From Haliotis cracherodii (lineage: Eukaryota): a stretch of DNA of 64,000 nucleotides. This document shows, in pieces, positions 29,856-58,464 of the stretch. The stretch's first letter is position 1. Every line of letters begins with the position of its first letter. Made by a program: the position numbers and the translations under genes. The stretch is taken from NCBI RefSeq assembly GCF_022045235.1, contig NW_027266265.1, forward strand, positions 45,570,001 to 45,634,000, read 5' to 3'. The notes beneath the pieces are model-generated. The model was not told the origin of the DNA and searched no databases. It saw nothing but the letters and a program-made list of their open reading frames with translations.

Positions 29856-30664
29856 AACAAGGGGATGCTCAATTACTAAAAAAAATATAGTTCGCTTTTA
29901 ATCACACATCTTGCACACTGAAGTCGATATTGACTTTCCGCTCTCGATGAAATAATTAAATTGAAACCAATATAATGTATAGAGTCGAGATAGGGGTAAT
30001 CAGAGACTATGTCGGTATATGGTCTTTGGAGTAATACAAAAAGAAGAAGACCCGAGAAGATCCGGGGTAGAATAGGTCTTTAGCAATCCATGCTTGCCTT
30101 AAAAGCGACTATGCTTGTAAGAGGCGTCGAACGGGATCGGGTGGTCAGGCTCGGGGACTTGGTTGATGCATGTCATCGTATCCCATGCATGGATCGATGC
30201 TCATGATGTCAATCACTGGATTGCCTCGTCCAGACTCGATTATTTACAGACCGCAGTCATACAGCTGGAATATTGCTGAGTGCGGCGTTAAACAACAAAC
30301 ATACACACAAACAAAACAGGCTTAAGAACACAAGAAAATGAATACCGGGTGAAGATGTGACAGTTCACTCTCCAAGCGCCTCCATGTACGGATCATTTAA
30401 GGACAATGCACCCCATGATTTCTCTTTGCGGAATGTACTGGTTGAGTGAACATGGATAAATTCAAGTCATAATCATACACCATGACAGTGAAAGCCTACA
30501 CTGACTCCGTCCTGGATAATTGTAAATTGACACATGGTTAAAACAAGCTGTCGCGTTGGAAGCCCTGGTGCCTGGACACATCGCCGACCAGAACACAGGG
30601 CTGTCAGTATAGGAAGTGTATAGTCCCAGCATCCGGGCTCAGTTCGGACAGCGTATCCGGCGAG

Positions 30665-30740
30665 TTTGAGCAATCAGTTAACGACAGGGCTGTTGAGGAT
30701 ATAAGAGGACCAGGACACTGTGTGGTCAAATCAGAGACTG
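30665..30740 (+). promoter_or_regulatory. Candidate TATA promoter for the TG-2 MGNLFS exon
   Basis: GCAATC about 30670, TATAAG 30700-30705, Inr-like TCAGAG 30731, ATG 30763. Confidence 0.5.
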
Positions 30741-30762
30741 TGGGATTAACGCGCGCACAAGG

Positions 30763-30785
30763 ATGGGGAACTTATTCAGTCGAAG
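30763..30785 (+). CDS. TG-2 candidate first coding exon MGNLFSR (N-myristoylation motif)
   Basis: ATG GGG AAC TTA TTC AGT CGA AG|gtgagg; phase 2 matches the acceptor at 35349; TATA box upstream. Confidence 0.7.
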
Positions 30786-33700
30786 GTGAGGCTGAATTAT
30801 CTTGACCTTAGATATATTTGATGTTGACTTCATCATGTGTAATTGGTAACGGTTGATGTAAGTTTAGACTTATGACAAATTTCGCTGAGATAGGGATTTG
30901 CAAACTAGTTACTTTTCTTCTTTTAAGTAGAATGAAAAATCTTGTTTCAATGTTTATCTCATGACCAGAGCACGTATAGTCACGGGTTTCATTATTATTA
31001 CCGTTAATGTTTGTTGTTCTATGTAAATATGTGACCAAAATGTACAGTATATGTAAATCAATATATATTCTGTCAATTATATGTATAATAACACAGACAT
31101 GGCCAACATATGGTGTATGTAATACATTGCTATGAATTCTACAAATATCGGCGTGTTCACTCAGCTACGGTTTCAATGAATACCTTTTAGTGAGTTCATG
31201 GGTGGCCTAGTAAGGGGAGACAATTCACCGTGCGGTGTTACCTCACTTATTTGTTCCAGGATCAGTTGACCGCGTGTTCGAATATCCGATTACTCCGATC
31301 ATGGTTCTTGCCCTGTACGCGTTATTTTCGTGTGATCGACCACAGCAATACATGAGTCACCATCGTCCCACAGTAAACTCATATACTGTGATAATGCGAA
31401 ATAATGCTCAAAGTAGCTTTACATCCATCTGACGTTGTATACACTGACCGCAATAGTGTTTTTAAGAAAACGTACAACTTTATGGATAACAACTTCTGGT
31501 TTAATGCATATAGTGACTGAACTCCAGCTTGATAGCGGTGAACGAATTACCCTCGAAACGTCGCTATATGCGATATAGAAAACTAGAAGCGAGGAGTAAA
31601 TTTTTACGCCGCTTTTAGCAATATTCCAACAATATCACGGCGGGGGACACCAGAAATGGGCTTCACACATTGTACCCATGTCGGGAATCGAACGCGGGTC
31701 TTCTGCTTGACGAGCGAACGCTTTAATCACTAGGCTACCCCACCGCCTTAAACCACAAGTGTTATCTATAAAGTTATACTTTTTCTTATTTATTCATCAC
31801 CTTCAGAATGCCAGTGAAACATAGTTTTGAAGGGCAGTTATAAAAGTACGTTTTATTAGAAGTAGAAGTACCAAGCCATATCATCTGCAACGCATTATCC
31901 ACCACAATGCGAGACTGTCAGAACATTAAACATTCTACGGAAATGGCCTTTTTCGGAAACAATGTAGCCATGGAAAAATAACCTTGCCCCATTTCTTAAC
32001 ATGTATATGCGTATACCATGTCCTTGACCTTCGTGCTTTTAGGCGTATATACGTATTTATTCCGTATGTCAAAGTTGCCTTGCTCGTTGGTTTGGAAACG
32101 TGTAGCGTATATTATTTCAAGATTGGATAATAACCTTGTTCCTTGCTTTTAAAGTTGTGCACCCCTTACTGGTATGGCTATGAGAGGTTTTCTCTATCGC
32201 AGGTCCAAGATTAGATGGTCAGTTTTGTACGGTGTCATGTGTCCAGTGATACCTTGACCCCAACTATTCCATGTTTGAACTGTTTTCTATGACTAATGTG
32301 ATATGACATGCAGACCGCATTAGTTCAAACGCTGTGAGTATAGGCCGACCTACACGTAACGCTCTACGAGTTAGGCTTATTTGTGGAATGTCCATTGTCC
32401 CGCGTCAACACAGCAACAAATAACAAATAACAACAAAACAACATGGTTTGCATGTTACTCGTCATATAAAGAAGAATATCGATATCTGGTTTAGGAAAAG
32501 CATGCACTATAATATAAAATACCCCATGAAATCGTCAGAAAAAATCTCTTGTGTGACAAATGCACTGCAATGACGGTCACGCTGTATGATTTGGCGTGAC
32601 GGTAAGTGTACTGTGAAGATATAGGTCAGATATAATACAGTTGTTCTTACCACAGCTGTTGGCGGTGCATATAGTCAATCAGTTTCCACTATTAATATGA
32701 TTTGTGTTTATTGCAAGCTCGGCAGACCATCATTGCAACGACGCCCCTACCTCTGCTGAAGTGTTATTGTCGCTCTGCTGATTGGGAAAATTGAAACATC
32801 ACCACTCAACTAAAATTATAGCGTCACTGTAAAATTCACCAACGGTATCAACTGATGTTATGATGCTCATATGTGTATCACTGAATATTCACTGCGGGGT
32901 TTAACAAAAAAAAGGGGCGTAGGGTAGCCTAGTGGTTAAAGTGTTCGCCTGTCACGCCGAAGCCTCGGGTTCGATTATTCGCGATCGGGTGTCCCGGTGG
33001 TGATATTATTGGAATATGGCTTAAAGTGACATTAAACACACTCACTTACTCCGGAAACAAATTTGAAGGTTTAATTGTCATCAGGGTTAACCTTAGATAT
33101 ACATGTATATCGCCGGGCATACTGGGTGCCCTGAAATTTGTGTTGTGAAAAGAAATCAAATTAAAAAATACCTGCCTCTTATTAATGTCTATATGTACAT
33201 CACTTCATATTGGACGTGTTGCACTTTACCCATGGGAGTATGAGCCGTATGAATTTAAACTGTCGGGCAAAAAAACTATATACCTGAAAATTAGATTTGA
33301 CCAAAACAATATAAACGTTTACAAAACAGTCGCCGAAACATTGTAAACTTAAGTCTCAAACATCAGCATCGAAGAATAATTGCTTGTTTGTTTCATCATT
33401 ACCTACGGCCACCATCAAATACGTGTGTATACTTTCTTTTGCCCGGCACTTTACCTAGTACCTTTTAGTGTGACAACTTTTATAGCTGTGAACAAGAACT
33501 GAGAAAATTTAGACTCTTGATATATTGATTCACGTGTCACAATTGCGAAAACTTATGTGCAAATTATATCACTGTAATACACTTAGTCGTATATTTTGTT
33601 CACAGCATCTTATATAATTACTTGTTTTTTTTAACTGAAGGTGCTCTTCTGGTTTCACGTTTGTTATGATGTAATTGTGTTTGCATTTATTAACTAAACT

Positions 33701-35839
33701 TTATATTATGTCAATAAAGATGAGTAACATCTACAATACATTCTATCATGTTTCAAGAACCAATCAAGTCAATGTCTCAATTTTTAATTACCAAAGAAGT
33801 TACTTTACGCCTCGTAGGACCAAAATAGATCCAAATAAATATGAGGAGATTAAATTAAGGTCTCAGTTCACTTCAGTCCATTTCTCCAAAATCCAGTCTC
33901 ATTTTCAGGCAACATGTATACTGACTGAAAAGTTCAGTCAATATGTACATTGCCTGAGTGAATCAGTCAATATGTACATTGCCTGAGTGAATCAGACAAT
34001 ATACATATTGCCTGATGATAGGCATTGATTGTGAGATATTTGCATAACACCCGGTACTTTATGTCTGTTCACTACTTGCTAATAGACAACAATTGCTTAA
34101 ACACCTGGCTATTAACATGTATATGTATAATTCGCATGCAGAACACGGTGTATGTAACAGATTATACCCATATCTTTAACACCAGCCGGTGGGGGGAAGT
34201 ATTCACTGATAGATAACACTTATGGCGATTTATCACTAACTTCAATAAAAGTATTTGACTTTTATTTTTCAATTATATATTAAACTTTTTCATTACAGTA
34301 AACTACGGTTATAACGAACACGCTTATAACGAACTTACGGATATAACGAACTTACTTTTTTGGTCCCGACTATTTGCTGTAGTTATGGTGTATATATGCT
34401 TATAACGAACTACGGTTATAACGAACTAAAATTAGTAGTCCCTTTGAGTTCGTTTTAACCGTACTTTACTGTATTTGAAAGAGGAGTTAATATCGTTAAC
34501 TGTTCAATCGCTTTTGTTCATCAACCTCGCTATATGGCTGAAATAATGCTGATGCGACGTTAGATTTAAACTCACCTGTTCATCAACAGTATACCTTCCA
34601 CTAACATGTATCAGTCGAACGATGCACTAGGTTAAACACTGTAGTTGTACAACGTGAGGTGTTTACTGATGTATGGACAATAATTAAGAAATGACTTATT
34701 GTGTAGTTTATGTTAATTATAACTCTCTAAACACAATAATATATAAGTTAATACAATAAATACAACAATAATATCTTCACAGACTGCTAATTTAATCTTT
34801 AAAACAAAGAAAACTGTAGACAGCGTTACGAAATCAGTGCAATAATGCGACGCAAGCCCCGCCCCCTATTATCAACCAATCAGGAAACAGTTGTCAGCTA
34901 GTGGGCGCGGCCTAATTTTCTTTTTTTTTGGTTTCTGGAAGCGTAAGCGCAAACAATATTGCTTGTTTAGCCAATCAATTGTAATTGAATCACTTGCAGT
35001 TTATAATTTGTGTGTCAACGTATATGTGTATATGCGTCAGGGTGTACGTGTGTACACTCCTGTTTCGTTGTGAGTACCCACTTAGCTTCGTGAAACTGGA
35101 TTTTTGACCTTAGCAGATTTTGACAAAATTTAGAAAATGAACAGCCAAAGACAAGTTAGATAGTCGGTATTGTTTCAGTGTTTTCCTAAATCTAGGTGCA
35201 TGTACTTTGTACGCCTATTGTCCTTGTCGAAAGCAGGACGGGTATATTTCAGTTTCGGTTTCACGTAACTGCCTGGCGATCAGGAGCATATTGTGTACGT
35301 CTACATCACGTGGTGGGCAAAGTGATTATTGGTAATTTGTCGTTACAGTGATTCAGGGGAGATCACCCAGCCGCGACTCACGTCTGCTCAGCCCATAGGA
35401 GACCCAGCACCACAGCCACCGCCACCAGCAACAGCAGCAGCAGCAGCGGACGACTTCGCCATGTACCGACATCGATACAGGGGCTACAGGCCAAGCTACA
35501 CTTTCAATCCAAACAGGTAGGGTTGACACAGTGGGTGGGTTGGTGATGGAGTATAAGGTAGTTATTAAAGTTATATCACACCAAAGGGAGTGGACTTTTC
35601 TCCCACATGAAGCTGACACGCCGTGGTATAACTGGAATATTGTCCAAAGCGGCGTTAAACTCAACTAACTCACTCACTCAGTTAACCAACTTTCCGAGGC
35701 AAGTGTGTTCACTAGAATATATCAAAGTCTGGTAGAAACTACACCTTTGGTATAGGCTGGTGATCACTCTTGCTTCGGGAAGATGTCACCGTAAGGGGTA
35801 GGAAAAGTCAGGCAGGTCGTAGACATTTACCGTTGTTTG

Positions 35840-35887
<48 letters not shown>

Positions 35888-38800
35888 CGTTTCCCTGGCC
35901 GGTGGTTTGATTCCCCGCTAAAGTGTGGTATGTTGTGGTGTCGACTTAACGGGCTAATACAAGGACTAAATTTTCGGAGTCAGTAAACATAGTGTGTCTA
36001 AGTAGGGTATTTGTGTTAAACTGAGACATGGTATCTCCGTGGGCTAGAACTTTGAAACCGGCATAGTACAAACAGCATCACACACGTACGAGCGCGTCGC
36101 TGTTGGAGGGAAAACATCCTGAATGCGAGGTTAAATCCTATTTCCCTTACCTCATCACCATCGTTGTTGTTATTGTTGTTGTTCATGCTGTTGTTGTTGA
36201 TCAGGTCCAGCTACTACAGATATGCCCGGCGATACCCATCCTACAGCTATCCAAGATGGCGCCCACGGGCGAGCGAGCGTGACCGACGTTTCCTCACCTT
36301 CCTCAACGACGACAGATACAGGAACAGAGACTTGAACAGAATACACAGACCTAGTACGTGACGGCGTTGCCGCGATCTACGACAGTCTTTAAAAAGACAC
36401 TAAATAATATTCGTCCACTAGAAATTATTAGAAAAAATACACTCACCGCCAAGAGAAATGCGAATACCATACATGTTGGTTAATATAATATTTTATGAAG
36501 AATTACTAATATTCAAAATATATTAGATTAGTTTGATGTACAAATGAACATACTGGCATGCTGTGTGAACCGACGCTCATAAACGCATCACATGTGACGT
36601 CATAGATCCATAATTCGAGATGCACCATTTGTCTCGTTCAGGATTAGCGTGTAAAGTTTGAAATCACGTTTAGCAGATCTTGATAAGAATAAAGACACTC
36701 TGTGGTAACGCTTGACTGATTGTTAGTTTTCTCATAAATTGGTACACATTGGAAACATATTTTCTCAACGTACATACTTCTCTATATGTTTCTATGGATC
36801 GCGTTTCTTTTGGCGGTGAGTATACATTGTGTTGATACAGTTAGTGAACAAGTACATAACACGATATGTTGTTTATGTGAACAGTTTTATGTTCGTGTAA
36901 ACAAAGGGGAATGATGTTTCACCTTGGTATGAAATTTGAGATAATTGAATGATGAAGTTTACAAAGAGAGGATAGCTTTGATATAGTCTGACTCTCTGAA
37001 CAGAAAATATTTATAGAGGGAGTGTTGATATTTTAAGTGCTGGTGTAGTTGCACGTTTTGATCAGACGAGAAAAACCGTGTTGATGTATACAGAGTCGGG
37101 ATAGTGGGACTTTCTGTACAGAAAGAATAGATAGAGGGAGTGTTAATATATACAGAGTCGGGATAGTGGGACTTTCTGTACAGAAAGAATAGATAGAGGG
37201 AGTGTTAATATATACAGAGTCGGGATAGTGGGACTTTCTGTACAGAAAGAATAGATAGAGGGAGTGTTAATATATACAGAGTCGGGATAGTGGGATTTTC
37301 TGTACAGAAAGAATACATAATTATATAGGAAGCTTGGTTATAGCCACATGGTCGGAATAGCTACCGAGAGGTTTGTGAACGCGGTACTAAAGTCACAGAT
37401 GACTTCGGGGGCAAGACACTTAGTTGCCGGCATAGTGGGGTTGATAGTTGTGGTAGGACGTTGTGACAGTGATGTAACCGACATGTATGTATGTCTACAG
37501 GTGACGAGATAGAAGCAAGCCAACCCGAGGTCCCAGTGGCAGAAGTTGCCACAAGGCTACACGTCAAGGGCGTCGACCTGCACATCGAAGACAATGGACG
37601 CAACCACGTCACAGACATGTACGAGTGTACGTCTGCCCGCACTGCAAGGGATGGTACCCGCAAACCGGCGGAGCTGGTCATCCGTCGGGGCCAAGAGTTC
37701 ACCCTGACCATCAACTTCGACAGGCCGTATGACGTAAAGAAGAATGATATCTCACTGACCTTCAACCTCGGTAAGAAGACTTGTCTTCAAAGCATGTCTT
37801 TCATCTTGCTGGATCGGTAACATATCCAGATTCTCAGGATTCTGGAATAAGATTATCGATATCAGAATTCAACGATTCCGGATTAACGAGCATTTTCAGG
37901 TTGAATAACATTCATTCGGATTCAAAGAGTCCCAGAGTAATGAGTGAGTGAGTATGGTTTTGTGCCGCTTTTAGCAGTATGCCAGCAATATAATGGCGGG
38001 GGACACCGGACACCAGAAATGCAATGGGATTCACACATTGTACCCATGTGGGGAATCGAACCCGTCTTCAGCGTGACGAGCGAATGCCACTAGGCTACCC
38101 TACCGTCCCTGTAGAGTAATGAGGTTGTTCATACCAGTAACATTAGAAGTTTAGGATACTTTCCTGAACTTAATGTAAATATGAAATGTCAAACACTAAC
38201 CATAGTTAGATAAATACCGATGCGACTTTAAATAAACTCACTCACTCACACTTTGTCCACGACAAATAAGCATTGTTTTATCTCCCTTGGGGGTGTTAAA
38301 ACATAATTTAATTATATTTGATTTAATCTAGGGGATGATTACAAACCAAAGAAGAGTATGAACGCGACGTTCAAGGTGGATGAAACGGGCAGCAAGAAAT
38401 ATAAGCCCAAAAAGTGGGGCGCGTCGTTGGTGTCGCAGAAGGGAAATTCCCTCACCGTCTCGGTCTTCGCTCCCGCCTCCATCCCAGTAGGAGAGTGGGA
38501 GTTCAGCGTCAAAACTATCGTGGACGTCAAGGACGGCAAAGATCTCATCTGGCAATACAACCACAATGAAGACATCAACATCCTCTTCAACCCTTTTTGT
38601 GAAGGTAAAAGCAAAACCATTGTGTTGTCACTTCCGACTCAGTTTGTAGTCATATATACACTCAGTAAACTACGTTTATAACGAACACACTTATAACGAA
38701 CTGTCGGATATAACGAACTTATTTTTAGTCCCGACCATTTGTTGTATATATGCTATATATATGCTTATAGCGAACTACGGTTATTACGAACTAAAATTAG

Positions 38801-41166
38801 TGGTCCTCTCGAGTTCGTTATAACCGTAGTCTACTGTAACCCCAAATACTGTCACGTCTAACCCAGTATATTGTCACGAAGTTCTCTCTGTGAACAGTGA
38901 TTCGGGGCATGTGGAGCTAGATGTATAGTGTCCTGTTGTCCTTTCAATAGGACATGGTGCATGTGGAGGCAGAGATTCTGTGATGTCCCGTTGTCCTCCC
39001 AAGAGGAATGAGTGTAGGTGGAGGGAGAGTTTCTGTAATGTCCTGTTGTCCTCTCAATAGGACATGGTGCATGTCGAGCGAGAGTTTCTGTAATGTCCTG
39101 TCGTCCTCCCAAGAGGAATAAGTGTACGTGGCGCTAGTACTATAATGTCCTGTTGTTCTCCCAAGAGGAATAAGTGTACGTGGCGCTAGTACTATAAGGT
39201 CCTGTCGTCCTCCCAAGAGGAATAAGTGTACGTGGCGCTAGTACTATAATGTCCTGTCGTCCTCCCAATAGGACAAGGTGCATGTGGAGTGAGAGTTTCT
39301 GTTATGCCCTGTTGTTCTCCCAAGAGGAATAAGTGTACGTGGCACTAGTACTATAATGTCCTGTCCAGGGTGTACGTGGAGCGAGTGTTTCTGTAATGTC
39401 CTGTTGTCCTTCTCAGAGGACAGGGTGTAGGTTGAGCGAGTGTTTCTGTAATGTCCTGTTGTCCTCTCAATAGGACATGGTGCATGTCGAGCGAGAGTTT
39501 CTGTAATGTCCTGTCGTCCTCCTAAGAGGAATAAGTGTACGTGGCGCTAGTACTATAATGTCCTGTTGTTCTCCCAAGAGGAATAAGTGTACGTGGCGCT
39601 AGTACTATAAGGTCCTGTTGTTCTCCCAAGAGGAATAAGTGGACGTGGCGCTAGTACTATAATGTCCTGTTGTTCTCCCAAGAGGAATAAGTGTACGTGG
39701 CGCTAGTACTATAAGGTCCTGTCGTCCTCCCAAGAGGAATAAGTGTACGTGGCGCTAGTACTATAATGTCCTGTCGTCCTCCCAATAGGACAAGGTGCAT
39801 GTGGAGTGAGAGTTTCTGTTATGCCCTGTTGTTCTCCCAAGAGGAATAAGTGTACGTGGCGCTAGTACTATAATGTCCTGTCCAGGGTGTACGTGGAGCG
39901 AGTGTTTCTGTAATGTCCTGTTGTCCTTCTCAGAGGACAGGGTGTAGGTTGAGCGAGTGTTTCTATAATGTTCTGTTGTCCTTCTCAGAGGACTGGGTGT
40001 AGGTTGAGCGAGGATTTCTGTAATGTTCTGTTGTCCTTCTCAGAGGACTGGGTGTACATGGAGGACAAGAGCTGGCTGCAAGAGGTGGTGTTAAATGACA
40101 AAGGTTCACAGTATTACGGCACCTACACAAAGATGGGAGCCAGGAGTTGGTTCTTCGGCCAGGTAAAGAACGTCTCAGGTCACAGTGGTTGCATTATATT
40201 GGAATATTGAAAAGTTGTTGACCTTTGTACAGATAATAAACTGAGAAAGGGAAATAAGCGACCCCGACCACAAACTGATAATCTGACAGAAAAGTTTGTG
40301 AGTATCAGTGAAGTCTTCTCTGTCANNNNNNNNNNNNNNNNNNNNNNNNNNNNNNNNNNNNNNNNNNNNNNNNNNNNNNNNNNNNNNNNNNNNNNNNNNN
40401 NNNNNNNNNNNNNNNNNNNNNNNNNNNNNNNNNNNNNNNNNNNNNNNNNNNNNNNNNNNNNAACCCGGGTCTTCGGCGTGACGAGCGAAAGCTTTAACCT
40501 CTAGGCGTCCCCACCACCCCTACTATTTATTGAATGTATTTAGGGAAATATTATTTCTTCTCTAAATATAAGCGACAAAACTCCTTCCATATTAATAACA
40601 AATCTTTGCTATAAGCAGAGTCGATTGTACTATTCCGACTATATGATGAGCATGTATCTAAGAATCACTATTAAATAGTGATGATACCAGGTGTTCGCGA
40701 AAAGGTGGACGTATCCTGTCCCTTCGTCATAGACACATGCAAAGGCAAATCCAAACTTTGTTAACAAAGGACGAATGGGGACTAGTTTTTTAACTTCATC
40801 TATGAAATATTAATCTAAATACATTCATGAGCAAGTCCGTGATTTATGATGATATTAAGCATACCTTCTACATTTGCTTCGAAAATCAGCTATTCCCTCG
40901 TTTATGTAAAAAAATAGAATGAAAACATCGTAATCAGCCTCACTGTCACATTTTAATTGTACATGTAGTGTTAGAATATATCGAAAAGAACACATTTTGT
41001 CATTTTTACACATGAATTTCAAATACATTGTTATGAGAAGGGAAGTAACTCATTTGATTTGTCTTGTCATGTCGGCCTCAGTCCATACGACTACTACTAC
41101 TACCACCACCACTACTGCTGCTGCTACTTGTACTATTACTTAGTCTACTACTTCTACGTCACCTTT

Positions 41167-41243
<77 letters not shown>

Positions 41244-42124
41244 ATTGTACTACTACCCCTGCTTTCTGGTGTCCCCCGCCTTGATATTGCTTGAATATTG
41301 CTAAAAGCGGCGTCAAACCATACTCACTCACTCACTACTCCTGCTGCTGCTGCTGCTGCTACAGCTACTGCTCCTTATTTTGCTACTACTACTACTACTT
41401 CTTTTACTACTATCACTACTACTACTGTTGATGTTTTTACTACTACTACTACTACTACTACTGCTACTGCTACTGCTACTACTACTTCTTTTACTACTAT
41501 CACTACTACTACTGTTGATGTTTTTACTACTACTACTACTACTGCTACTACTACTACCACCACCACCACCACTACTACTCTTTCTACATAGGACATGCAG
41601 CATTTCACATGACAGTCTCACAGGTCTTGTACACAATGGAAGATTTGTTGTAGTTCGAGGACGGCATTCTGGACGCTGCGTTTCATCTGGTGAGGAAGGG
41701 GTACGGGTACCGCACCACACCCGACATGGGCAACGCTGCATCTGTATCGAGGATCATCTCCCAGATTGTAAGTAATCCCGGGGTCATGAAGGATCAAATT
41801 CTTGTGCAAAGAACACCAGGACCAGGGTCAAAGAACACCAGGACCAGAGTAATCTGTTTAATGTATTTTGGAGAATATTGTACCATAACCATATATTACG
41901 ATAAAATGAAAATGGATTATTTTTAATATTTTTTCGCCCCACATATTTCATTTTGAGATAATTCATTTTTCTGATTTGATAGCTTGACAAAAATCATAAT
42001 ATTTCGGGACATGCAATCGAGTCGAACACGGATATAAAAATATCACAACAGTGTCGTTATAGGGGAGGTGAGGTGAAATTGGGACGTCCAAGATTATTGC
42101 ACTTATATAGCGACGTGCATGAAC

Positions 42125-42160
<36 letters not shown>

Positions 42161-45100
42161 CTGCTTGTACTAGTCCGGACTGATGCCGATTTATAATGCT
42201 AGCCCACTGAGATACCATGCCGCAGTTTTAACATGAATACCCCACTCAGACACAGTATACTGACTCCGAGCCGACCAGTCCTTGTTTTAGCCCCTTAATG
42301 CCGAGCTCCAGACAGGGTAACAACAAGTACCATCTTTTAACGTCGTTTGGTATGACGCGGCCGGGGATCGAACACCGGACCTTCCGCTCTCCGTGCGGAC
42401 GCTCTACCACTAGACCACGGAGGCGGTCTCCAGTGTCGTTATAAGTTGAAGGTAGACTAGCAGTAACATACTCTACGTGTATACGCTCCATCACCTATCT
42501 CCTCCGCTCCCATTGGCTGTATCTATTGGTCGATGAAATCTACTCTGCTTTACATACACTCTGCATTGCAATACCGATCGTCATCAGGTAAACGCCCCCG
42601 ACGACGACGGCGTGTTGATGGGCAACTGGAGCGGCAATTACGAGGGAGGGACGCGCCCCACCAAGTGGAACGGCAGCGTCAAGATACTTCGTCAGTACAT
42701 GGACACGGCTAAACCTGTCAAGTACGGCCAGTGCTGGGTCTTTTCTGGAGTCGTCACGGCAGGTATATGCTGTCCCAAAGCTGATTTCTTACATCTATCC
42801 AAAGGCCTCCATAACAGTTATATCATGATCGTCCAAAGACAGTCATGGCAGGTATATCGTGATTGTCCTAAGAAAGTCATGGCAGGTATATATTGATTGT
42901 CCTAGGGCAGTCGTGGCAGGCATATATTGATTGTCTCAAGATCGTCATGGTAGGTATATATTGATTGTCCTAAGACAGTCATGGCAGGTATATCTTGATT
43001 GTCCTGAAACATTCATGGCAGGTATATATTGATTGTCCTAAGACAGTCGTAGCAGGTATATATTGGTTGTCCTAAGACAGTCATGGCAGGTATATCTTGA
43101 TTGTCCTGAAACATTCATGGCAGGTATATATTGATTGTCCTAAGACAGTCGTAGCAGGTATATCTTGATTGTCCTAAGACAGTCATGGCAGGTATATCTT
43201 GATTGTCCTGAGACATTCATGGCAGGTATATATTGATTGTCCTAAGACAGTCGTAGCAGGTATATCTTGATTGTCCTAAGACAGTCATGGCAGGTATATA
43301 TTGATTGTCCTGAGACATTCATGGCAGGTATATCTTGATTGTCCTAAGACAATCATGGCAGGTATATCTTGATTGTCCTAAGACAGTCGTAGCAGGTATA
43401 TCTTGATTGTCCTAAGACAGTCATGGCAGGTATATATTGATTGTCCCAAGGCTGCAATAGTTTTATCTCATAAACTTATAAACTCTAAACAACCCTCACA
43501 GAGGTGTCTCAAACACCATGTACGTTATCATGTTTTCATGATTGATTCAGTGTGCCGAGCTCTGGGTCTTCCCTGTCGCAGCATCACCAACTTCGCCTCT
43601 GCCCACAACACCGACACCGACCGCCTCAGTATTGACGTCCTCATGAAGGTGGACGAAGACGACAATGAAACCAATTTGAGCGATGATTCAGTGTGGTACG
43701 TAAAGAAAAAGTCAAATTACCCCGTCCCAGCTATCTATTGCTTGTCGTTCCATATGGACCTGGTGCCCAGGCTCCGTGACGTGGTTGCGTACCCCGAGGA
43801 TGTCGGATGCTCGTCTTGCTACCATTCGCTGGTCTGTCTGATACAGGCTCGATTAATAACAGGTCGTAAAGATATACGAAGGGTGGTTGGAAGGTTCTGA
43901 GACTAACTATGATGGACGGTGTTCATGAAGTATGTTGCTTATTATGTTTTTTCAACACACTCCCGCTCTGATATTCACAGGCAGTTACCAAAGTAGCGTA
44001 GCATTTGCCGTTAATGGACTGATCTTACGAGAGGTCGTCCACCGATACGGTTCCTTTGGAATCTCACCATTCCAGCTAATGGAAGAGATTTTGCCTACTC
44101 AGGAGAAGGGGACGTAAGATGTTTCCAACGGCTTTGATTGTTGTAGAGTCTCTGGCTGACAGCAGAATAGCATCTGCCATTTTTTGTCTGATTTTTTCGC
44201 GAGGTGGTCCACCGATGGGATTCCTTTCGAATATCCCCTTCCCAGCTGATGGAACAGACTTTGCCCTCTTCGGAGGAGGGGACGTTAGATGTTTCCACGG
44301 CTTTGACTGTTGCCTAGAATCTGGCAGATAGTGGGAAACCCAAGACTTAGTGGACTTAAGGTGCTTACATAGGCTTCGTTCTTTCAGGAACTTCCACGTG
44401 TGGAACGAGGTATGGATGAGTCGGCCTGACCTGAGTGACTCCAAGGAGTGGGATGGCTGGCAGGTGATTGACGCCACTCCTCAGGAGTACAGCGACGGTA
44501 GGTGGAATCTTAGGATCTTATATTCGTGTTCATGTCATACTATGTTTTTATTACTTGCCCGTGAAGAGATCACCCGTTTAATAAACATACAGCTGTATTA
44601 CACATTGTGTAATACCAAAACGCGTGCTTATGTACTCTCGGAACACGTTTCACGAACAAATATTGAAAGCTCTCAACATCCCTTGGCTTATTCAACGACA
44701 TTGCGTGTGGAGTTGATAGATCACTGAGAGGAGCTTATGCACACTCGATGACCCCAGCAACCTTGTTGCTAGGCTGACGTCACATGGCATTGTTTCGCCG
44801 ATGGATCTTGCATCAAAATTCCACAAATTACGTCATCGGGTATTGTGACGTTATTGAAAACTTTGAAGGTGCAAGGCCAGTTCCACAAGGCGATCGTATT
44901 GTAGCGCAACGACAGTCGTTGGTCTAAGTTAAAGTATGTGAGATGCGAAAGTCTTAGCCCTACGATAATTTTGTGAATTCTAAAGGTAGACCCGTTGTAT
45001 GGTATGAAATTCATACGTTTCAACTTTTGACATGTTTGAAGTATTATTCTGTTAAACTCAATTGGACTATGTCGTGGATCATGTAGGTGTCAGCCTATTC

Positions 45101-48100
45101 ATACTCCACGGTATAATTAAAAAAACGTTATAAATTGCAGGTAATAAATAAAATACTAAACTCGCTCCCGTGTAAAATCAATTTTATGAAACTCGTGAAT
45201 AGTTGTGGTATCTAACTCTTCACTCGTTTCATAAAATTGGTATTACACGGGAGCTCGTTTAGTATTCTATATATAACACGAGTATCTACCTTCGGAATTT
45301 AGGCAAGTGCAAATGACCCTAAAGGAACCAACCTTTTTTCAATATCATGGATCCACCCGTGATTATAACTGTGTCATCATTGTCAAGGAGTCTACTGCTG
45401 CGGTCCTGCCCCGGTCAAGGCCATCAAAGAAGGGGAGATAAATGTTGGCAAAGACGCAGCTTTCATATTTTCTGAAGTAAATGCTGACCGCGTTGAATTC
45501 AAAGAGGATCCTTGCTCAGGGGTGATGGTGGAGATAAGCAGGAGAACCAGCAGGTAAGCAGTGCCCCTTGTGATTAAAAGCAACATAATCCTTTGCGGAA
45601 TCATGAATAATCTCTGATAACAGCAGTCCATTAGACCATAAGCATATGTTCATGGACCGCTATCAAATACTGATCATATTAGGTATTCGCGAAAAGGTGA
45701 CTGATTATCCAAATCAGAGGTTTCAATCCACAGTAAAAGAGCATCCACCTTAAAAGATCGACGTCGGACAGAAATCTTGATAGGTTTTTGGTGTCTCTGT
45801 TTGTTGTTTTTTTCTTCCTTTTTGTTCTCTTTTGTTTTCTTTTCATTTTTTGAGGGGGAGGGGGGTTGTTTTGTTTTTGTATGTGTCTCAATACTAAACG
45901 AATTATTTTTTTATGCTACATTGAACCGCTGTACTATACCTGAGAGGCCTCGATTGAAAGAGCTGATTTTACGTCCGCTTCATCACGGTTTAATAATTCA
46001 GCGATGTCAAATCTACAGGCAACATGGCTCTAAAGTTAGCGAATGTGTTTATCTTGTAATTGATCTATGTTTCAGCGTGGGCAAAAACATTAGTACACAC
46101 ATGCCGACGGGTAGGGCGTACAGGGGCGCCTCCATGAGAAGGAGGGGGGTTGAAAGCGAAAGCGAGAACCTGGAGCGTCTCGACGTCACTGACGAGTACA
46201 AGTATAAGGAAGGTTTGTTTGTTTGTTTGCTTGTTTGTTTGTTTTTGTTTAACGCCGCACTCATCAATATGTCAGCTATATGACGGCCGTCTGTAAATAA
46301 TCGAGTCTCGACCAGACAAGCCCGTGATTGATATCATGCATATCGATCTACGCAATTGGGATACGAAGACATATACATCAACCAAGTCGGCTTGACCACC
46401 CGATCCCATTAGTTGCCACGAGGAAGGTAATCTATCTCATGGTTCAGTAGGGATCGGAGGGACACAATGTATCCTTAGTGTGGGAAGATCAACTGGTAGG
46501 TCTAGACATGAATAGCCAGTGTTACATATGGAATCTTAGGAGTGACATTGTCGCATTGTCCGCCATACAAAACCAAGCAAGAAATTATAAAATTATCCAA
46601 ACGCGAATTTCGACAAATTGTCACGTTGTCGCATTGTTCCGTTTTAATTAATATATTTTGTTTTATATATAACAAGGCGTGACAATCCAACGGTTGGTCA
46701 AAATGCCCTTTGATGATGTGGTCACTTTTGACTGATACAATGATCTGCCCATTCCTAACGTCATGTTCATGGACTATGTACAATTAAATATTTCTTCATG
46801 TGACAAAAAACACTTCGTACTTCAATCAATTGATTGACATAATGACCATCGATCCATGAATTTGGGAAACGATGACATGTATCAACCAACTCAGCGAGTC
46901 TGACCACCCGATCCCGTTAGTCGCCTTTTACGACAAGCATGGGTTGCTGAAGACCTATTTTACCCCGGATCTTCATGGGTGATTTCAGGTAGTGAAAAAG
47001 AACGAAGTATTGTGAAGAAGGCAGAGCGAATGTTTCTCCTGGCACACTGTGGCTTTGAACACGATGATGAAGAGGAATTGGATGTCCTTCCGCTTGAGGT
47101 AAGGACTAAATACATCTAACTTGACGCCTTCCGTCCTGGAAGTCTATGTCAAACCAAGTTGTGCCTTGGAGACCGACTGACCATTTAATAACCATCGGAA
47201 CAATTGTCTTTTGACCCACAGCACGAGCCATTAGGCATGTTTATAGGTGGACACATTGTGCTTCAATTTTCCTAAATGATTGATGTGTGGACAACCTGAT
47301 AAAGGTTCTGACTGAAGGCAAGTATCTATTCACTAACCGTCACCAGCTATTTCCATAGTGCTATATTGCAGCACCGTGACATCACGATGGTCAGTACTCT
47401 GTATTAATAAATAATAATAATAATAATGATAATATAGTTTATTATTGTGTCATGTGTACATAATACACCTGGCCATTACTGGCCTAAAAGACATCTAAAA
47501 TTATACAATCAATAAAATACATAAATAAAACATTATAACTAATAATATCTTCACATGATTACAGCAACCACCACCCTCCCCCCGCCCCCCTCCACAGACA
47601 CATACTCTCAAGCAAGTTCAACTTAGTCACTAGTTCACACACCTTAGCACACAACACCGCCCCCCCCCCCCCCCCCCCCCCCACCACCACCACCACCACC
47701 AACCAACCCCCTCCACCCCCTTCCTCCATATACGTGTCCCAGATCAGCGAGTCATAAAAATTCAACTCGGTCACTCAATTACACGCGACATTTTATTGAC
47801 ACTTTTTAAACTTTATTTCACACAATTACGTAGGCCACGGATCAATAATAATAATAATAATAATGGTTATATCAATAGAGATATGGTTCCCAAAACAGAG
47901 ACACCTATGCTTCTTACGAGGAATACAACATATTACAAACATTATGTCCATTTAGATGTTTGTATTATCAGCAATATCTGTTTTCCTCAGATCCGTGAAT
48001 ATCCGGGTTAGAAAAGGACTTTAGGACCTTTAACATGCGACACTGCTTGTCGTAAAAAGCGACTAACGGGATCGGGTGGTCAGGCTCGGTGACTTGGTTA

Positions 48101-51100
48101 TATGTCATCGTATCCCAGTTGCTATCAATCACGGGATTGTCTGGTCAAGGATCGATTATATACAGACCGCCATCATATAGCTTGAATATTGCTGAGTGCG
48201 GCGTTAAGCAACAAACAATCAACCAATCAACAATGTTTTCCTAATTACAAGATTATAAATAAACATAAAGTGATATTCATCTTCAATGTATGACACTTAC
48301 AGATCCTCGTAAGATTACGTTCTCAGCTCCGTTGGTTCGTTATGGTACCAGCCTGTTTTAATTCTTTTGGGACCCATATCTTAACCGCGCCAAGCATTTG
48401 CAATGGTAATAAATTTCAGATATGACACTGAATGACCAATACACACACTTCATCCGAAACTCCGTGGGGAATATTTCCCCATCGGTTTAATGCTGGTTGT
48501 AAGAGGCGACTATGTTTTATCGGCTTGTCTGGCTATGCGATCATTTTATATTATTATATTTTGTTACTGGCTGTGCGACCTTTTTTTCTGGCTATGCGTC
48601 CTGACTATGAGACATCTCACCTAAATGAGTTGATCAATGCTCAATATTTCAGTTACCAGCGTGCCTTGTCCAAACTTGGTACTAAATTGGTCTCTGTCAT
48701 ACACACAGTTGAAATATTGCTAACTGCGGCGTTGAACAACATTCACTTACTCACTTCATCCAATGACATGACGTATAACTTTGTAACGATGTATTCAAAC
48801 AGGACATCGAAATTGAAATTGAGGAGATGGATGACATATTTGTGGGTAACGGGTTCGAGTTCACCGTGCACGTGAAGAACAAGGGTAAAGAAGACGCGTG
48901 CTTCAAGGACATCACCCTGAGGGTGCTCTACAAGACGTACCATGACACGTGCCAGGGGGTCGCGGCCTTGAGGAAAGTCAAGGACATTCAGCTGGGCCCG
49001 AACCAGAGTACGGCCAATGCATTTCAGTATAAAGTAAAACCTCAATAATGGTTCACTCTTTATTTATTTTGTACCTATAAAAGTGTTTCTGGTCTATTCC
49101 AATGTGGTTTGTGATCCGGGGTAGAATAGGTCTTCAGCGACCCATGCTTGCCTTAAAAGGGCGACTATGCCTGTCGTAAGAGGCGACTAACGGAATCGGG
49201 TGGTCAGGCTCGCTGACTTGGTGTATGGCATGTGGACGATCTTATTTGCGTTGATCGATGCTCATGATGTCAATTAATGGATTGTCTGGTCCAGACTCGA
49301 TTATTTACAGACCGCCGTCATATAGCTGGAATATTGCTGAGTGCGGCGTTAAACAACAACAACAACAACAATGTGGTTTGTTAAAAGGATAAATTTCAGT
49401 TCATAGTAAAACCGAATGGTAATCCGAATGGGTCAATTTCTATTCATCATGTATGGATAAACGAGTTTCTGGTCCAGTTCTGGTTTGTGAGCGATAAATC
49501 ATGAACAATCTTGTTTCTTTCTGTCGAGTTTTTGATTCCTTGATTAAGAGGTTCCGGTTTTAGTTTGTATGAACGTGAATATGCAGGTGTGAAACATACG
49601 CTCATTCATGTATAACGTCCGAGTCGCTCTTCTTGAAAGTTTTATTACTGAATCTCCCTTTATATACTTCCGTTTCTCTAGCCGAGACGTTGACGATTGA
49701 AGTGGACAAGGACCGCGCCACTGCCTATCCAAATTTGGGGTTCAACTTTGAACTGAGAGCAATCGCGACCTTCTTCCACACATACAACGTCGTCAGTGAA
49801 AGCGAACTGTTCAGACTGAGGCGACCGGACATTGAAGTGAAGGTAAGTCTTGGTTACCTCCCTTGCCGATATAGAACTCCTGGCAGCGATATTTAACGTA
49901 GTCAGTGAAAGAGACTTTTCCGACTGAGACTATTTGGGCTGGGACGGGTAACTCGGGTACCCGGGTCGGGTGGGTACTGAGTAAGACCGGGGTACCCACA
50001 GGACTACCCGGACCCATGGTAAGCCACGTGATATTTTGTTTAATGACAAAAGAATTCTGGAACTCTATACACTACAAGTCACTAATGTTTCTCTCTGACT
50101 ATGCACCCATTACTCCTGACTTTTCATAAGGTTAAATAAATAATTATATAACTTAAGTCAACTTCATTGTAAGCATGACCAGATCGTTTAATACACGTAT
50201 CTAAATACGTTTTGCAAGTGCTGTGGTTAGTAAAAAAGTCCCAATGGGACATTTTGTATCTCTTGAGACCCACAGTGGGTGCCCGGCTAGGGTTGGGTAA
50301 TGGGATGGCTGGATACCCGGGTAGTAAATTTGGGGTGGGTGGGTACCCGGGTAGTAAATCTGGACTCGTCCCACCCCTAGAGATTATTAAGAAGGACTAC
50401 ACGGGGGGTGAGTCGGGTACTTATCGGGAATGTGTCGGGTATATGTCGAAATCGAGTCGATATATGTCAGTATGTATTTCAGGGTCCCGAGACGTGCCGC
50501 CTGTCTGATGTCATCAAGGTGGAGCTGACCTTCACCAACCCTTTGGATGTGGTCCTGACCGAGTGCGAGATCGACATCGAGGGGGGTCTGGAGTGCGTGG
50601 ACCCCGATAAGGACACGTTCCCCGTGCCGTCAGTATTCACCTCTCTCTCACTTACCACGTTCCCCGTGCTGTCAGTGTTCACTTCTCTCTCACATAACAC
50701 GTTCCCCGTGCCAGCAGTACTCACACCTCTCTCACATAACACATTCCCCGTGCCAGCAGTACTCACACTTTTGTCACATAACACGTTCCCCGTGCCAGCA
50801 GTACTCACACCTCTCTCACATAACACATTCCCCGTGCCAGCAGTACTCACACCTCTCTCACATAACACGTTCCCCGTGCCAGCAGTACTCACACCTCTCT
50901 CACATAACACGTTCCCCGTGCCAGCAGTACTCACACCTCTCTCACATAACACGTTCCCCGTGCCAGCAGTACTCACACCTCCCTCACATAACACGCCCCT
51001 GTGCCAGCAGTACTCACACCTCTGACATTTGGTTCATCTACGGTGATGTATAGTTCACCAACATCTACAAATAACGTATGCGCTATCATCTGGTTCACAA

Positions 51101-51411
51101 ACATTTCCACATAACGTCTACGGTAACATTTGATTCACAAAAATCTAAAAAAAAACGTCTACGGTAATGTTTGGTTCAAATGACTCCGCAACATTCACCA
51201 TTTTGTCTCACACCTACTGAGACTTGTCAAACAGAATCTCATGGTTCGATATTCCAGGGATATACAACCGAAGGGGTCATGGAGCCGCACCCTGAGCATG
51301 AAGCCACAACGTCACCCCCGGGGAAGCAAGGACAGAGACATCAGCATCGGATTCGACTCCAAACAGTTGTCGGACATCATAGGCTACTATGCTGTGGAAA
51401 TCAAGTCGTAA
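30763..51411 (+). CDS. TGM: Transglutaminase paralog TG-2, complete, about 874 aa, 17 coding exons: 30763-30785, 35349-35516, 36205-36353, 37501-37770, 38332-38604, 40044-40162, 41654-41767, 42588-42762, 43551-43695, 44388-44497, 45388-45553, 46076-46212, 46989-47098, 48803-49007, 49682-49842, 50483-50628, 51258-51411
   Basis: Joined exons total 2625 nt in an open frame. N-terminal beta-sandwich ([15 protein letters not shown]), core (GQCWVFSG Cys 42732-42734, [19 protein letters not shown]) and two barrels. The first exon is less certain; an alternative start is ATG 35461 (about 829 aa). Confidence 0.95.
33258..33451. mobile_element. Tc1-type MITE (ACTGCCGGGCAAAAGAAA TIR family; other ends at about 637 and 55980)
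   Basis: Inverted termini aactgtcgggcaaaa / ttttgcccggcactt. Confidence 0.6.
34296..34471. mobile_element. pogo/Tigger-like MITE, copy 2
   Basis: ta|CAGTAAA...TTTACTG|ta. Confidence 0.78.
34856..35069 (+). promoter_or_regulatory. Candidate alternative TG-2 promoter and first exon
   Basis: GCCCCGCCCC GC box 34856, CCAATC at about 34876 and 34971, consensus donor |gtgagt at 35070. Confidence 0.5.
35349..35516 (+). CDS. TG-2 exon 2 (DSGEITQP...[23 protein letters not shown]...)
   Basis: ttacag|...|gtaggg; contains GCCATG at 35461, equivalent to the TG-3 start. Confidence 0.82.
36205..36353 (+). CDS. TG-2 exon 3, Arg/Tyr-rich
   Basis: atcag|...|gtacgt; phases 2 to 1 fit; YPSYSY similar to TG-3 YPTYSY. 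Confidence 0.83.
36438..36823. mobile_element. Tc1-type MITE, same family as 12296-12656
   Basis: Same TIRs and internal sequence in reverse orientation. Confidence 0.8.
37088..37315. repeat. 62-bp tandem repeat, about 3.7 copies
   Basis: TACAGAGTCGGGATAGTGGGAC... at 62-bp spacing. Confidence 0.9.
37501..37770 (+). CDS. TG-2 exon 4 (beta-sandwich, LVIRRGQEF)
   Basis: tacag|...|gtaaga; 270 bp. Confidence 0.93.
38332..38604 (+). CDS. TG-2 exon 5 (...PVGEW...ILFNPFCE)
   Basis: ctag|...|gtaaaa; 273 bp. Confidence 0.93.
38663..38836. mobile_element. pogo/Tigger-like MITE, copy 3
   Basis: Same termini and body. Confidence 0.75.
38905..40060 (+). repeat. 55-bp minisatellite derived from the TG-2 exon 6 acceptor junction
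   Basis: Units of TAATGTCCTGTTGTCCTTCTCAG|AGGAC.GGGTGTA end in the real acceptor at 40043. Confidence 0.92.
40044..40162 (+). CDS. TG-2 exon 6 (DWVYMED...WFFGQ)
   Basis: ctcag|...|gtaaag; 119 bp. Confidence 0.93.
41086..41580. repeat. (CTA/TAC)n compound microsatellite interrupted by a SINE A tail
   Basis: Direct reading. Confidence 0.9.
41654..41767 (+). CDS. TG-2 exon 7 ([10 protein letters not shown]...ISQI)
   Basis: gtag|...|gtaagt; 114 bp. Confidence 0.93.
42065..42428 (-). mobile_element. SINE family C copy
   Basis: TSD cagtgtcgttata. Confidence 0.85.
42588..42762 (+). CDS. TG-2 exon 8, catalytic Cys
   Basis: atcag|...|gtatat; 175 bp; YGQCWVFSG. Confidence 0.96.
42825..43450 (+). 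repeat. 34-bp minisatellite derived from the TG-2 exon 8 donor junction
   Basis: Units of GTCATGGCAG|GTATAT.TTGATTGTCCTAAGACA match the exon end GTCACGGCAG|GTATATGCTGTCC. Confidence 0.92.
43551..43695 (+). CDS. TG-2 exon 9 ([18 protein letters not shown]...)
   Basis: ttcag|...|gtacgt; 145 bp. Confidence 0.94.
43900..44347 (-). mobile_element. Mariner transposase fragment with internal duplication
   Basis: [35 protein letters not shown], typical of mariner after the first D; nucleotide similarity to 62240-62410. Confidence 0.7.
44388..44497 (+). CDS. TG-2 exon 10, catalytic His/Asp
   Basis: ttcag|...|gtaggt; 110 bp. Confidence 0.95.
45152..45266. repeat. Long palindrome or hairpin (MITE-like), arms about 53 bp
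   Basis: ATACTAAACTCGCTCCCGTGTAA...TTACACGGGAGCTCGTTTAGTAT. Confidence 0.8.
45388..45553 (+). CDS. TG-2 exon 11 (VYCCGPAPV...SEVNAD)
   Basis: tcaag|...|gtaagc; 166 bp. Confidence 0.93.
46076..46212 (+). CDS. TG-2 exon 12 (VGKNISTH...YKYKE)
   Basis: ttcag|...|gtttgt; 137 bp. Confidence 0.92.
46989..47098 (+). CDS. TG-2 exon 13 (GSEKERSIV...)
   Basis: ttcag|...|gtaagg; 110 bp. Confidence 0.9.
48803..49007 (+). CDS. TG-2 exon 14, barrel 1
   Basis: aacag|...|gtacgg; 205 bp. Confidence 0.92.
49682..49842 (+). CDS. TG-2 exon 15
   Basis: ctag|...|gtaagt; 161 bp. Confidence 0.9.
49934..50379. mobile_element. hAT-like MITE
   Basis: TIR T(T/A)GGG(C/G)TGGGACG; 8-bp TSD gagactat/gagattat; subterminal GGGTACCCG repeats. 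Confidence 0.7.
50483..50628 (+). CDS. TG-2 exon 16, barrel 2 (FTNPLDVVL)
   Basis: ttcag|...|gtcagt; 146 bp as in TG-1. Confidence 0.91.
50615..51022 (+). repeat. 42-bp minisatellite derived from the TG-2 exon 16 donor junction
   Basis: Units of ACGTTCCCCGTGCCAGCAGTACTCACACCTCTCTCACATAAC; the first unit spans the real donor. Confidence 0.93.
51258..51411 (+). CDS. TG-2 terminal coding exon (...[11 protein letters not shown])
   Basis: tccag|...TAA; 154 bp. Confidence 0.92.
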
Positions 51412-55296: not shown

Positions 55297-58200
55297 AACA
55301 GAGGATAGCCAGCCTAGATTTTCTGCCGAAACAGATTCTATTTGGGGTAAGGGGCCAAATATCTGTGGACATTATATGAATGGACCACTGACAATCAGTG
55401 ATGACACCAGGGTAAGCATGTCCCGCCTAACCGCTAGCACCGCCATTCATACAGCTTGCATGAAAAAGTAAGTATATATTGCCTGCCGCCGCACAACGGT
55501 ACTCCTCTAAACAAACCAGACAATCAAATGATCGATGAACCAGAAAATCCAGTGACACGGGAGTACCTTAACTGATTGTGTTGAAATTATAAAAAACGAT
55601 ATATTAATATGTGTACAAGAGCAGAGATTTTGCTGCTTATGAGTAAAGAAAAAAGAATGAATACACTTGAATTAACTAACACATAACTAACGTCATCAAA
55701 ACGTTACTAGGCTAAAAAAGAATGAGTACACTTGAAAGAACACATAACTAACGTCATCAAAACGTTATTAGGTTAAAAAAGAATGAATACACTTGAATTA
55801 ACTTAAACATAACTAACGTCATCAACACGCTTGAAACAGTCTCGTAAAACTGCAAACGTAAGGTCCAAAAATCATTTAGGGTACCCTTATCAAATACATC
55901 CCCATAGAAAAAACATTTCCTGTTTGATTCATTTTCAGCCACCATTAAACATGGGTGTATACTTTCTTTTGCCCGGCAGTAAGTGGGTTGCAGCGTATAT
56001 ATTATAAACTGTAAATAAGGATGGCACGAACTTTGGGTGTGCTTAGAGTTCATTATATCCATAGTCCAGGCTCACGACTGACAAAATTAATTCAATTGGG
56101 ACATATTATGCGTCATTTCTCCGTGCTTGTACGTTTTTCTATGGAGTGCTAAAAGGGGTATTGTCGCCCTTCCAAAAACAAGCATTTGTCGTATTGTCGC
56201 CCTTTGGTAAAAGTAAAAACTATTATTCAAAGTGCGACAATGCGATAAATGGCAAAAGGTATCCTTGTCGCATTCTGGGATTCATATTTTTCTCAAACTA
56301 CAGACCGTCGCCGTGGTCTGGTGGTAGAGCATCCGTCCAGAGCGCTGAAGGTTCGGGGTTCGATCCCAGGCCGCGTCATACGTAGAGACGTTAGAATATG
56401 GTTAGAATATGGCCTTGCGCTTCGCATGAAGGGGCTAAAATCAAGGACTGGTCGGCGGGATGATATCTCAGTGGGCTAGCACTATAATTTCGGCANNNNN
56501 NNNNNNNNNNNNNNNNNNNNNNNNNNNNNNNNNNNNNNNNNNNNNNNNNNNNNNNNNNNNNNNNNNNNNNNNNNNNNNNNNNNNNNNNNNNNNNNNNNNN
56601 NNNNNNNNNNNNNNNNNNNNNNNNNNACGTTAAACCCCATTTCACCTCACCTTCTAAATACACAACTGACTATGAAGACACATAACAATCAGTTTACGCC
56701 TTATTCCAACCAGTATTAAACGTATGGCTCATAACTATATATTCACCACTAGACTAGTATGAATACGTATGCTATGAATATCAATGAATTAGTAAATGCA
56801 CTGCCATAAAATTCGAAGTTAACTCATGCATCCTGGACACGCGCGGCCACGTGCCCGGAATATGTGTTATCCATCACATCCACACAGGCCGCCATATTAA
56901 CCAGAAGGTAAGAGTTTAGATATTAACTTTGCTTGAAAAGGGAGCTGAAAGTAGTCTTCAACTTGCTGCAACACAATCTGGCGCTACTTCTTGAAAAACA
57001 TCAAACCTGGTATGTAGGCAGAGTTCGAGATAACTGATCACCTCGGGGCTGCTGTTTGTTTTTGGCGGACTGTAGGACATTTTCGTCTCCTGCCCAGTCC
57101 AATATTTCACGTTCAACTTATCTCACCTAGTTTACGGTAAAATTTGCGAAGTTTGCATTTAATTTTTTATGTTTAATATAGTTGGTTAAAAATCTAAGTT
57201 TAGTTTACATGAAGTTGATTTTAACAGCAAAGCTAAGCATTCGTGTGTGACCATGCATTTGCTTATACCACGATTCATCTTACTGCTGTCTTGAGAGGAA
57301 GCCCAAATTGATGCAGTTGATGGACGTGTACCACTTTAGTGAAACCCATGAGCATGGGCATGGTGCTTACAAACCTAAAACGGTGAATCGGTGATTCGAA
57401 CCCACGATCATAGCTTTTTGGCAAAGCAAAGTGACACAACTGAGTGACGAGCACCAATGTTAATTCTGAACGCAAAACATTCTGCATGGATGGTTTCAAA
57501 TGGAAATGTTTTCACTGTTATCCTCCCAGGCAATAGCAGCGATACGTATCGCGCACTACAATGAAACTTCTTTAATCTGGACGTACCCATACTAGTGAAA
57601 TCGTCGGGATAAAAACAGTCCGGGATTTACAACACATTGATACAACGCAATGCACATAGTGTATAACAGCAGTGAAGATCCGGGGTAGAATAGGTCTTCA
57701 GCAACCTATACTTGTTGTAAGAGGCGACTAACGGGATCGGATGGTCAGACTCGCTGGTTTAGATTGGAGTATTTACAGACCGTCGTCATATAGCTGAAAT
57801 ATAAACATAGTTGGTGTAAATGCAGCAAGATGTATCAAAGCACGCGTTAGCAAGGGCGTTGTTTTGGACAGCGGGGTTTCACTGTATCTCTTCACTACAA
57901 GTATTTGTATTTGTTGCGGACTGTAGGCATATTAATTTGTTATCTGGTATATATAACACTGTGACGATTATCATTCTGGCTAAGAACGAAGCCATGGTTG
58001 GGTTACTGTCAAGGATACAATCATGCTGTCCCGTTACGATGTGACTAGGGTAGAGCGTTAAAGCAAGCAGATTCATTCACGCCTGCAATATGTATTCAGC
58101 TTCCCTAGTTGCGGGATTTGATAGACGGGGATTGGAGGCCCTGTAGCCTGTGCCGCATTTCGCCGTACATAGTTGTCTCGCTTCGTGGTGCCAGGATCCG

Positions 58201-58411: not shown

Positions 58412-58464
58412 ATGTTCAGACGGTACGGGGGGAACACGCCACGCACGTCCACCAGCAGACCACG
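58412..58464 (+). CDS. TG-3 first coding exon (MFRRYGGNTPRTSTSRP)
   Basis: Kozak GCCGCCATG; acceptor at 58363; donor CG|gtacgt phase 2. Confidence 0.75.

Follow-up and report, generated by a model that had tools for sequence, protein, structure and literature searches.

The window, a stretch of 64,000 nucleotides, is part of a transglutaminase gene cluster of the abalone Haliotis cracherodii and contains the 3' part of one transglutaminase gene, the whole of a second (30763-51411, + strand) and the 5' part of a third. When a catalytic exon was used as a query against the genome, 13 matches were obtained among 14 candidates, nine of these in C2:45.39-45.68 Mb. The middle gene, which the first-pass annotation called 'TG-2' as the second gene in the window and not after mammalian TGM2, has an exon 100% identical to RefSeq annulin-like isoform X1 of H. 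cracherodii, and its 17 GT-AG exons (30763..51411), spliced and translated, reproduced this protein of 874 aa letter for letter. Isoform X1 contains Transglut_N and Transglut_core domains (PF00868, 98.4 bits; PF01841, 48.2 bits; both above the cut-off) and an intact Cys-His-Asp triad, with C421, H482 and D507 aligned to residues 314, 373 and 396 of factor XIII, which we take to be the catalytic positions. As for the C-terminal beta-barrels, PF00927 was not reported for X1; the factor XIII alignment extends to residue 810, and protein P0002 has PF00927. Judged by its domains and triad, the product is an animal transglutaminase of the factor XIII/TGM family. The features considered below are the following (positions in the window, with the basis of each in brackets):

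30700..30706, + strand: TATA box (TATAAGA) of exon 1A (sequence)
30763..30785, + strand: coding part of exon 1A, 23 nt, phase 2, MGNLFSR+S, with the motif G2-N3-S6-R7 (X1 in four species; paralog exon of the same size)
30786..30791, + strand: donor of exon 1A, GTGAGG (AAG/GTGAGG), joined to 35349 (exact X1 exon chain; contig pattern)
34717..35004, no strand assigned: interspersed repeat copy holding a GC box (34856) and CCAAT boxes (34876, 34971) (genome similarity search)
35005..35069, + strand: candidate exon 1B, ATG 35032, donor 35070 (sequence)
35349..35516, + strand: exon 2, an acidic Pro/Ala linker (residues 8-45), then internal Met46 (exact X1 chain; spliced contigs of runs X5 and X6)
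35461..35463, + strand: internal ATG (Met46), the RefSeq X2 start, common to many mollusc transglutaminases (RefSeq, alignment)
36205..36353, + strand: exon 3 (exact X1 chain)
37501..51411, + strand: exons 4-17, transglutaminase N, core (C421, H482, D507) and C-terminal region (exact X1 translation, Pfam, factor XIII alignment)
58412..58414, + strand: start annotated for the downstream paralog, MFRRYGG, which corresponds to Met46 (alignment)
17234, 25307 and 32601: candidate donors for an X2 first exon (donor sequence)

No Rfam matches were found in 30000-36000.

A coding exon of 23 nt, preceded by a TATA box and in phase with exon 2, had been proposed in the first-pass annotation; this exon is real, its chain being exactly that of RefSeq X1. 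With the A at 30733 of an Inr-like TCA as the predicted start, exon 1A would be about 53 nt long. The exon 2 acceptor ends at 35348, and the spliced reading is MGNLFSR/SDSG. X1 proteins of all four Haliotis species (H. cracherodii, H. rufescens, H. rubra and H. asinina) start with MGNLFSRSDSG; the conservation in relatives on which the proposal had depended was checked, and residues 1-11 are invariant (11/11), against 20/34 in the linker and 249/326 in the core. Ten candidates in 334 kb of the cluster start with MG in phase 2 and end in a GTRAG donor, and only two among them measure 23 nt; these open the coding sequences of this gene and of the upstream paralog, the exon of the latter (G000:C2:45559212) having the same phase, the same first nine bases and the product MGNSAGVK. 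This paralog exon has a pyrimidine-rich acceptor 21 nt before its ATG (L025:9191-9234, G000:C2:45559191) and looks internal, not first. A fourth paralog (L030:2534-2574, G000:C2:45666534) possesses a TATA-preceded phase-2 first exon that encodes MWN, one base from MGN, with the donor AG/GTGAGA and an internal MYSARF; a relative in H. asinina starts with MGFF, and the MWN exon may be an MGN exon in which Gly2 was lost.

In each of the four Haliotis species, RefSeq annotates X1 with Gly2 together with X2 starting at Met46 (XP_071092231.1 and XP_071092232.1, annulin-like X1/X2, in H. cracherodii; two accessions for one identical X2 protein in H. asinina). This agrees with the earlier suggestion of a Gly2 first exon alternating with a form lacking it, the motif being strongly conserved. 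No ATG is found in exon 2 upstream of 35461, and that of Met46 stands in a good GCC-ATG context. Its alignment with the start of the downstream gene, also noted at first pass, was confirmed (Met46 against ATG 58412), and similar starts are annotated in other molluscs (MYSR in Lottia, MYRR in Gigantopelta, MYGR in Mya and MYRD in Aplysia). This Met probably served as the original start, to which the leader was added before part of the abalone duplications took place, as read from outgroup gene models that may miss MG exons. X2 is an automated gene model and is probably made from another, non-coding first exon. Among the candidate donors listed above, the one at 32601 (ACG/GTAAGT) is the best-scoring in intron 1 and has a TATA-like stretch about 90 nt upstream. 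Before the downstream gene, a candidate non-coding exon (approx. 56800-56907) was compared with exon 1A as a possible homolog, scored no higher than background tiles and was dropped. None of 384 candidates was a short protein with residues 1-125.

We found 22 sequencing runs, 18 of them guessed to be RNA and all available as contigs, and compared five (runs X1, X2, X5, X6 and X7) with the locus. The first comparison was swamped by repeats, with none informative among the best 15 of 585 joints. Exons 2-5 are joined as expected in contigs of runs X5 and X6, both of which are guessed to be RNA. A contig of run X2 covers 30383-30783 unbroken and carries 30 further letters lying off that stretch, a second contig of the same run crosses the intron and ends at 35375, and further contigs start at 35347 in runs X2, X5 and X6, the pair from run X2 fitting a k-1 overlap with the start at 35347. 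With letters common to both sides assigned to the right-hand side, the convention used at every other joint, the ends at 30783, 35375 and 35347 form the pattern expected from a 30785-35349 joint (two AG-ending predecessors), which is indirect evidence for this joint.

Runs X1 and X2 contain contigs that pass from the intron into exon 2, and given these, unspliced RNA or DNA could be an alternative source of the 5'-short X2 model. It might be that there is one promoter only, that all mature mRNA begins with exon 1A and that X2 reflects either a model of unspliced reads or leaky scanning to Met46, for which the unbroken contigs and the good context of Met46 would speak. X2, however, was annotated independently in four species, and ATG 30763 lies in ACAAGG-ATG-G; A at -3 with G at +4 is a strong start context under the Kozak rule and should limit leakage. 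We consider a single promoter unlikely. Whether the MGN exon is a first exon at all was also weighed, since it might be a cassette skipped from a common upstream non-coding exon, as the acceptor of the upstream paralog's MGN exon would suggest. In run X7, the contig reaching into exon 2 has before it a leader of 261 letters, lying off 34520-35346; this is more than the 53 nt that the TATA box would predict and would suit a cassette, but 30380-30762 contains no AG with a pyrimidine tract of at least 60%, the TATA/Inr-like spacing fits a first exon and the contig over 30383-30783 is unbroken. The cassette is, in our estimation, highly improbable.

The first-pass annotation had also placed a second promoter, with GC and CCAAT boxes, at 34856. 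The boxes are present, but they are those of an interspersed repeat copy, and the promoter is unsupported. The copy at 34717-35004, which probably extends leftwards to approx. 34630, gave 40 of 40 scored matches including itself (39 other copies; 503 candidates) at 73-78% identity, with a sharp common end at 35004; two further copies lie within the cluster, downstream of the catalytic exons of two paralogs. Two copies contain a long imperfect palindrome, which suggests that the repeat is a non-autonomous transposon. The interspersed repeat, of about 300-350 bp (also in L003-L007, L015 and L022), combines a conserved CCAATCAGGAAACAG core and a sharp end with a long palindrome near the other end.

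Promoter B could nevertheless be real if this repeat copy had been co-opted, as repeats can act as promoters, with a short exon ending at 35069 feeding exon 2. A start past 35032 (e.g. near 35039) would then yield X2, and a start before 35032 would yield a protein beginning MRQGV. The in-frame ATG 35032 and the consensus donor at 35070 (GTT/GTGAGT) described earlier do exist, and the MRQGV isoform built on them is unsupported: the annotated short form starts at Met46, and none of the eight annotated isoform proteins starts with MRQGV. ATG 35032 has T at -3, and another ATG, out of frame, stands before it at 35024. GTGAGT has 475 copies in 333 kb. In a donor matrix from 15 internal donors 35069 ranks 94 of 332 against 7 for the true 1A donor, a ranking biased by a training set without G at +3 and therefore discarded. 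The donors of 1A and 1B share a 30-nt flank with TTGACCTTAG (rank 4 of 1649 GTRAG sites), which argues for promoter B, and this 10-mer, presumably resembling a nuclear-receptor half-site, occurs at 30802-30811 and 35104-35113 as the only two places in 333 kb of the cluster; against it, the 10-mer is altered at 35111 in a related animal. The contig of the related animal shows one difference over the 71 nt of 35005-35075 versus 21 over the 273 nt of intron that follow, in favour of an exon (two-sided p 0.058, post hoc and resting on 40 of 42 rows). GTRAG is found within 100 nt of the repeat end in none of five other copies, and the leader of the X7 contig, lying off 34520-35346, likewise speaks against promoter B. 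No joint was listed in any of four runs, and 34940-35324 had no cover in runs X5, X6 and X7; since contigs drop short tips and rare forms, the missing joint and cover are no evidence against exon 1B. Taken on both sides, promoter B appears doubtful, and the MRQGV start represents a slim share of that already low chance.

As claimed in the first-pass annotation, MGNLFS fits the myristoylation consensus: Gly2, Asn3 and Ser6 match the MGxxxS/T pattern and the Asn3 rule set out in the accessible portion of PMC4736023. Gly2 is found in all four X1 proteins, where Asn3, Ser6 and Arg7 are invariant, and myristoylation of Gly2 after methionine removal is likely from these residues. The first Cys of the four proteins is at residues 156, 156, 158 and, in H. 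asinina, 69, none near Gly2. Myristate alone is a weak membrane anchor (PMC8173174, available text). An Arg/Tyr-rich stretch at residues 46-114 (the end of exon 2 and exon 3), present in both isoforms, holds 19 R and 11 Y with a net charge of +14; this basic stretch is 45 residues from Gly2, behind a linker of net charge -3. The missing Cys, the weakness of myristate by itself, and the distance of the basic stretch and its presence in the short form weigh against the reading preferred below. Such a low-complexity stretch (69 aa; window 35461-36353) is common to many mollusc transglutaminases, and it could be a membrane-, nucleic-acid- or condensate-binding region. An oyster transglutaminase is described as mainly cytoplasmic in the available part of PMC13583783, which may count against a membrane-leaning abalone form.

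The reading we prefer, with a probability of roughly 0.55, is that the conserved 23-nt exon gives a likely myristoylated, membrane-leaning X1, and that X2, started at Met46 and probably from other, non-coding first exon sequence, would be without the anchor. Exon 1A would place MGNLFS at the N-terminus of the long isoform; Met would be removed and Gly2 myristoylated, so that the long form would lean to membranes, its weak myristate anchor being aided by the Arg/Tyr-rich stretch and not by palmitate. Such a myristate-plus-basic anchor would be reversible, the short form would be mostly soluble, and promoter choice would act as the isoform switch. Membrane targeting is the usual role of N-myristate, and nearby Cys residues are found in other MG-starting transglutaminases (6 of the 15 surveyed below); both points argue against the alternative in which the two isoforms exist and share one location, and the myristate acts in protein binding, in N-terminal stability or within an internal pocket. 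That alternative, very unlikely in our view, would be favoured by the lack of a palmitoyl Cys and by the sequestered myristate and switch behaviour known from the accessible text of PMC8173174.

Shibata et al. are said to have derived, in 2017, Drosophila TG-A and TG-B from alternative first exons of Tg. The abalone gene is similar to the fly's in having two N-termini from one transglutaminase gene, one with and one without Gly2. In the available parts of PMC7448892, PMC7884776 and PMC11854935, TG-A is myristoylated, palmitoylated and sorted to multivesicular bodies, its exosome release needs palmitate, and palmitoylation of TG-B was undetected. Of the parallel drawn at first pass, the switch with its two starts holds, whereas dual acylation fails: unlike TG-A, the abalone leader has no palmitoylatable Cys, and exosome secretion is therefore not to be assumed. 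In contrast to the fly pair, the short abalone form is truncated at the N-terminus, beginning at an internal Met that is conserved, and the quick tree (below) suggests that the leader was acquired during the abalone expansion. Mammalian TGM1 is acylated (PMC11854935, seen in part). It resembles the abalone enzyme in an N-terminal extension before the beta-sandwich and a lipid anchor (predicted in abalone), but its anchor is an internal Cys cluster (Cys47-53), and that of abalone would be Gly2 from an optional exon. In sperm hexokinase HK1S an isoform-specific Gly2 N-terminus moves the enzyme to the membrane; Cys5 is needed as well, and membrane location was lost in a C5A Q6S mutant that matches the MGxxxS consensus (PMC4736023, available portion), which calls for caution with the myristate-only leader of abalone.

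The two proteins of this gene are already in RefSeq as annulin-like X1/X2, with orthologs in the other Haliotis species, under names that do not mention acylation; the two gene models and the switch principle, the latter from the fly, were thus known, and what is new is its occurrence in a mollusc, the lack of a palmitoyl site there and the repeated appearance in several phyla. No acylated mollusc transglutaminase isoforms were found in the literature covered, with subscription journals mostly outside it. Transglutaminases have no signal peptide, and the question is how the invertebrate enzymes get to membranes or leave the cell to act in clotting, wound repair and matrix hardening. If the leader is myristoylated, exon choice would set the working place of this protein-crosslinking enzyme, much as in fruit flies. 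The abalone, a farmed mollusc, has a conserved pair with and without Gly2 but not the palmitoyl site on which the fly depends, and offers a direct test of whether myristate and a basic patch suffice.

The family survey comprised 141 Met-starting representatives of the 150 best. Fifteen of them start with MG, and Ser6 is present in 11 of these 15 versus 13 of the 126 others (p 3e-7, the rows being phylogenetically non-independent), an excess indicating that such leaders recur in the family. Among ten MG-type clusters examined, four of which have a single member, two hold an MG/non-MG pair. A cuttlefish cluster of six has three members of 742 aa starting with MGAHYS or MGGHYS and three of 715 aa starting with M[FY]ERLG; a Nematostella pair has MGTNIS versus MSQPEF. 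The recurrence of such pairs in other phyla points to a general means of redirecting transglutaminase. In a quick tree of 28 rows chosen from approx. 187 proteins, with N-terminal extensions trimmed, abalone is represented by 13 rows, which group together (99) with the outgroups around them, and the two genes with MGN do not pair as sisters. It is possible, and we propose it tentatively, that the transglutaminases of abalone, cuttlefish, sea anemone and fly each gained an optional myristoyl leader on their own; the abalone 23-nt exon would read through an old 5' UTR to the ancestral MY-R start, with myristate and the Arg/Tyr patch replacing palmitate, and the tandem copies would have split the states, the upstream one MG only, this gene both and the downstream one without MG.

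Some minor observations concern the surroundings of the gene. A 276-aa open frame in the window at 21515-22345 (- strand) is Tc1/mariner transposase-like by eye, and broken retrotransposon frames, reverse-transcriptase-like by eye, lie at 1290-2850 in an intron of the upstream gene. Two paralogs at C2:45456869 (- strand) and C2:45526025 (+ strand) have equal scores, a common repeat insertion and opposite orientation, and by these features the pair is a recent inverted duplication.
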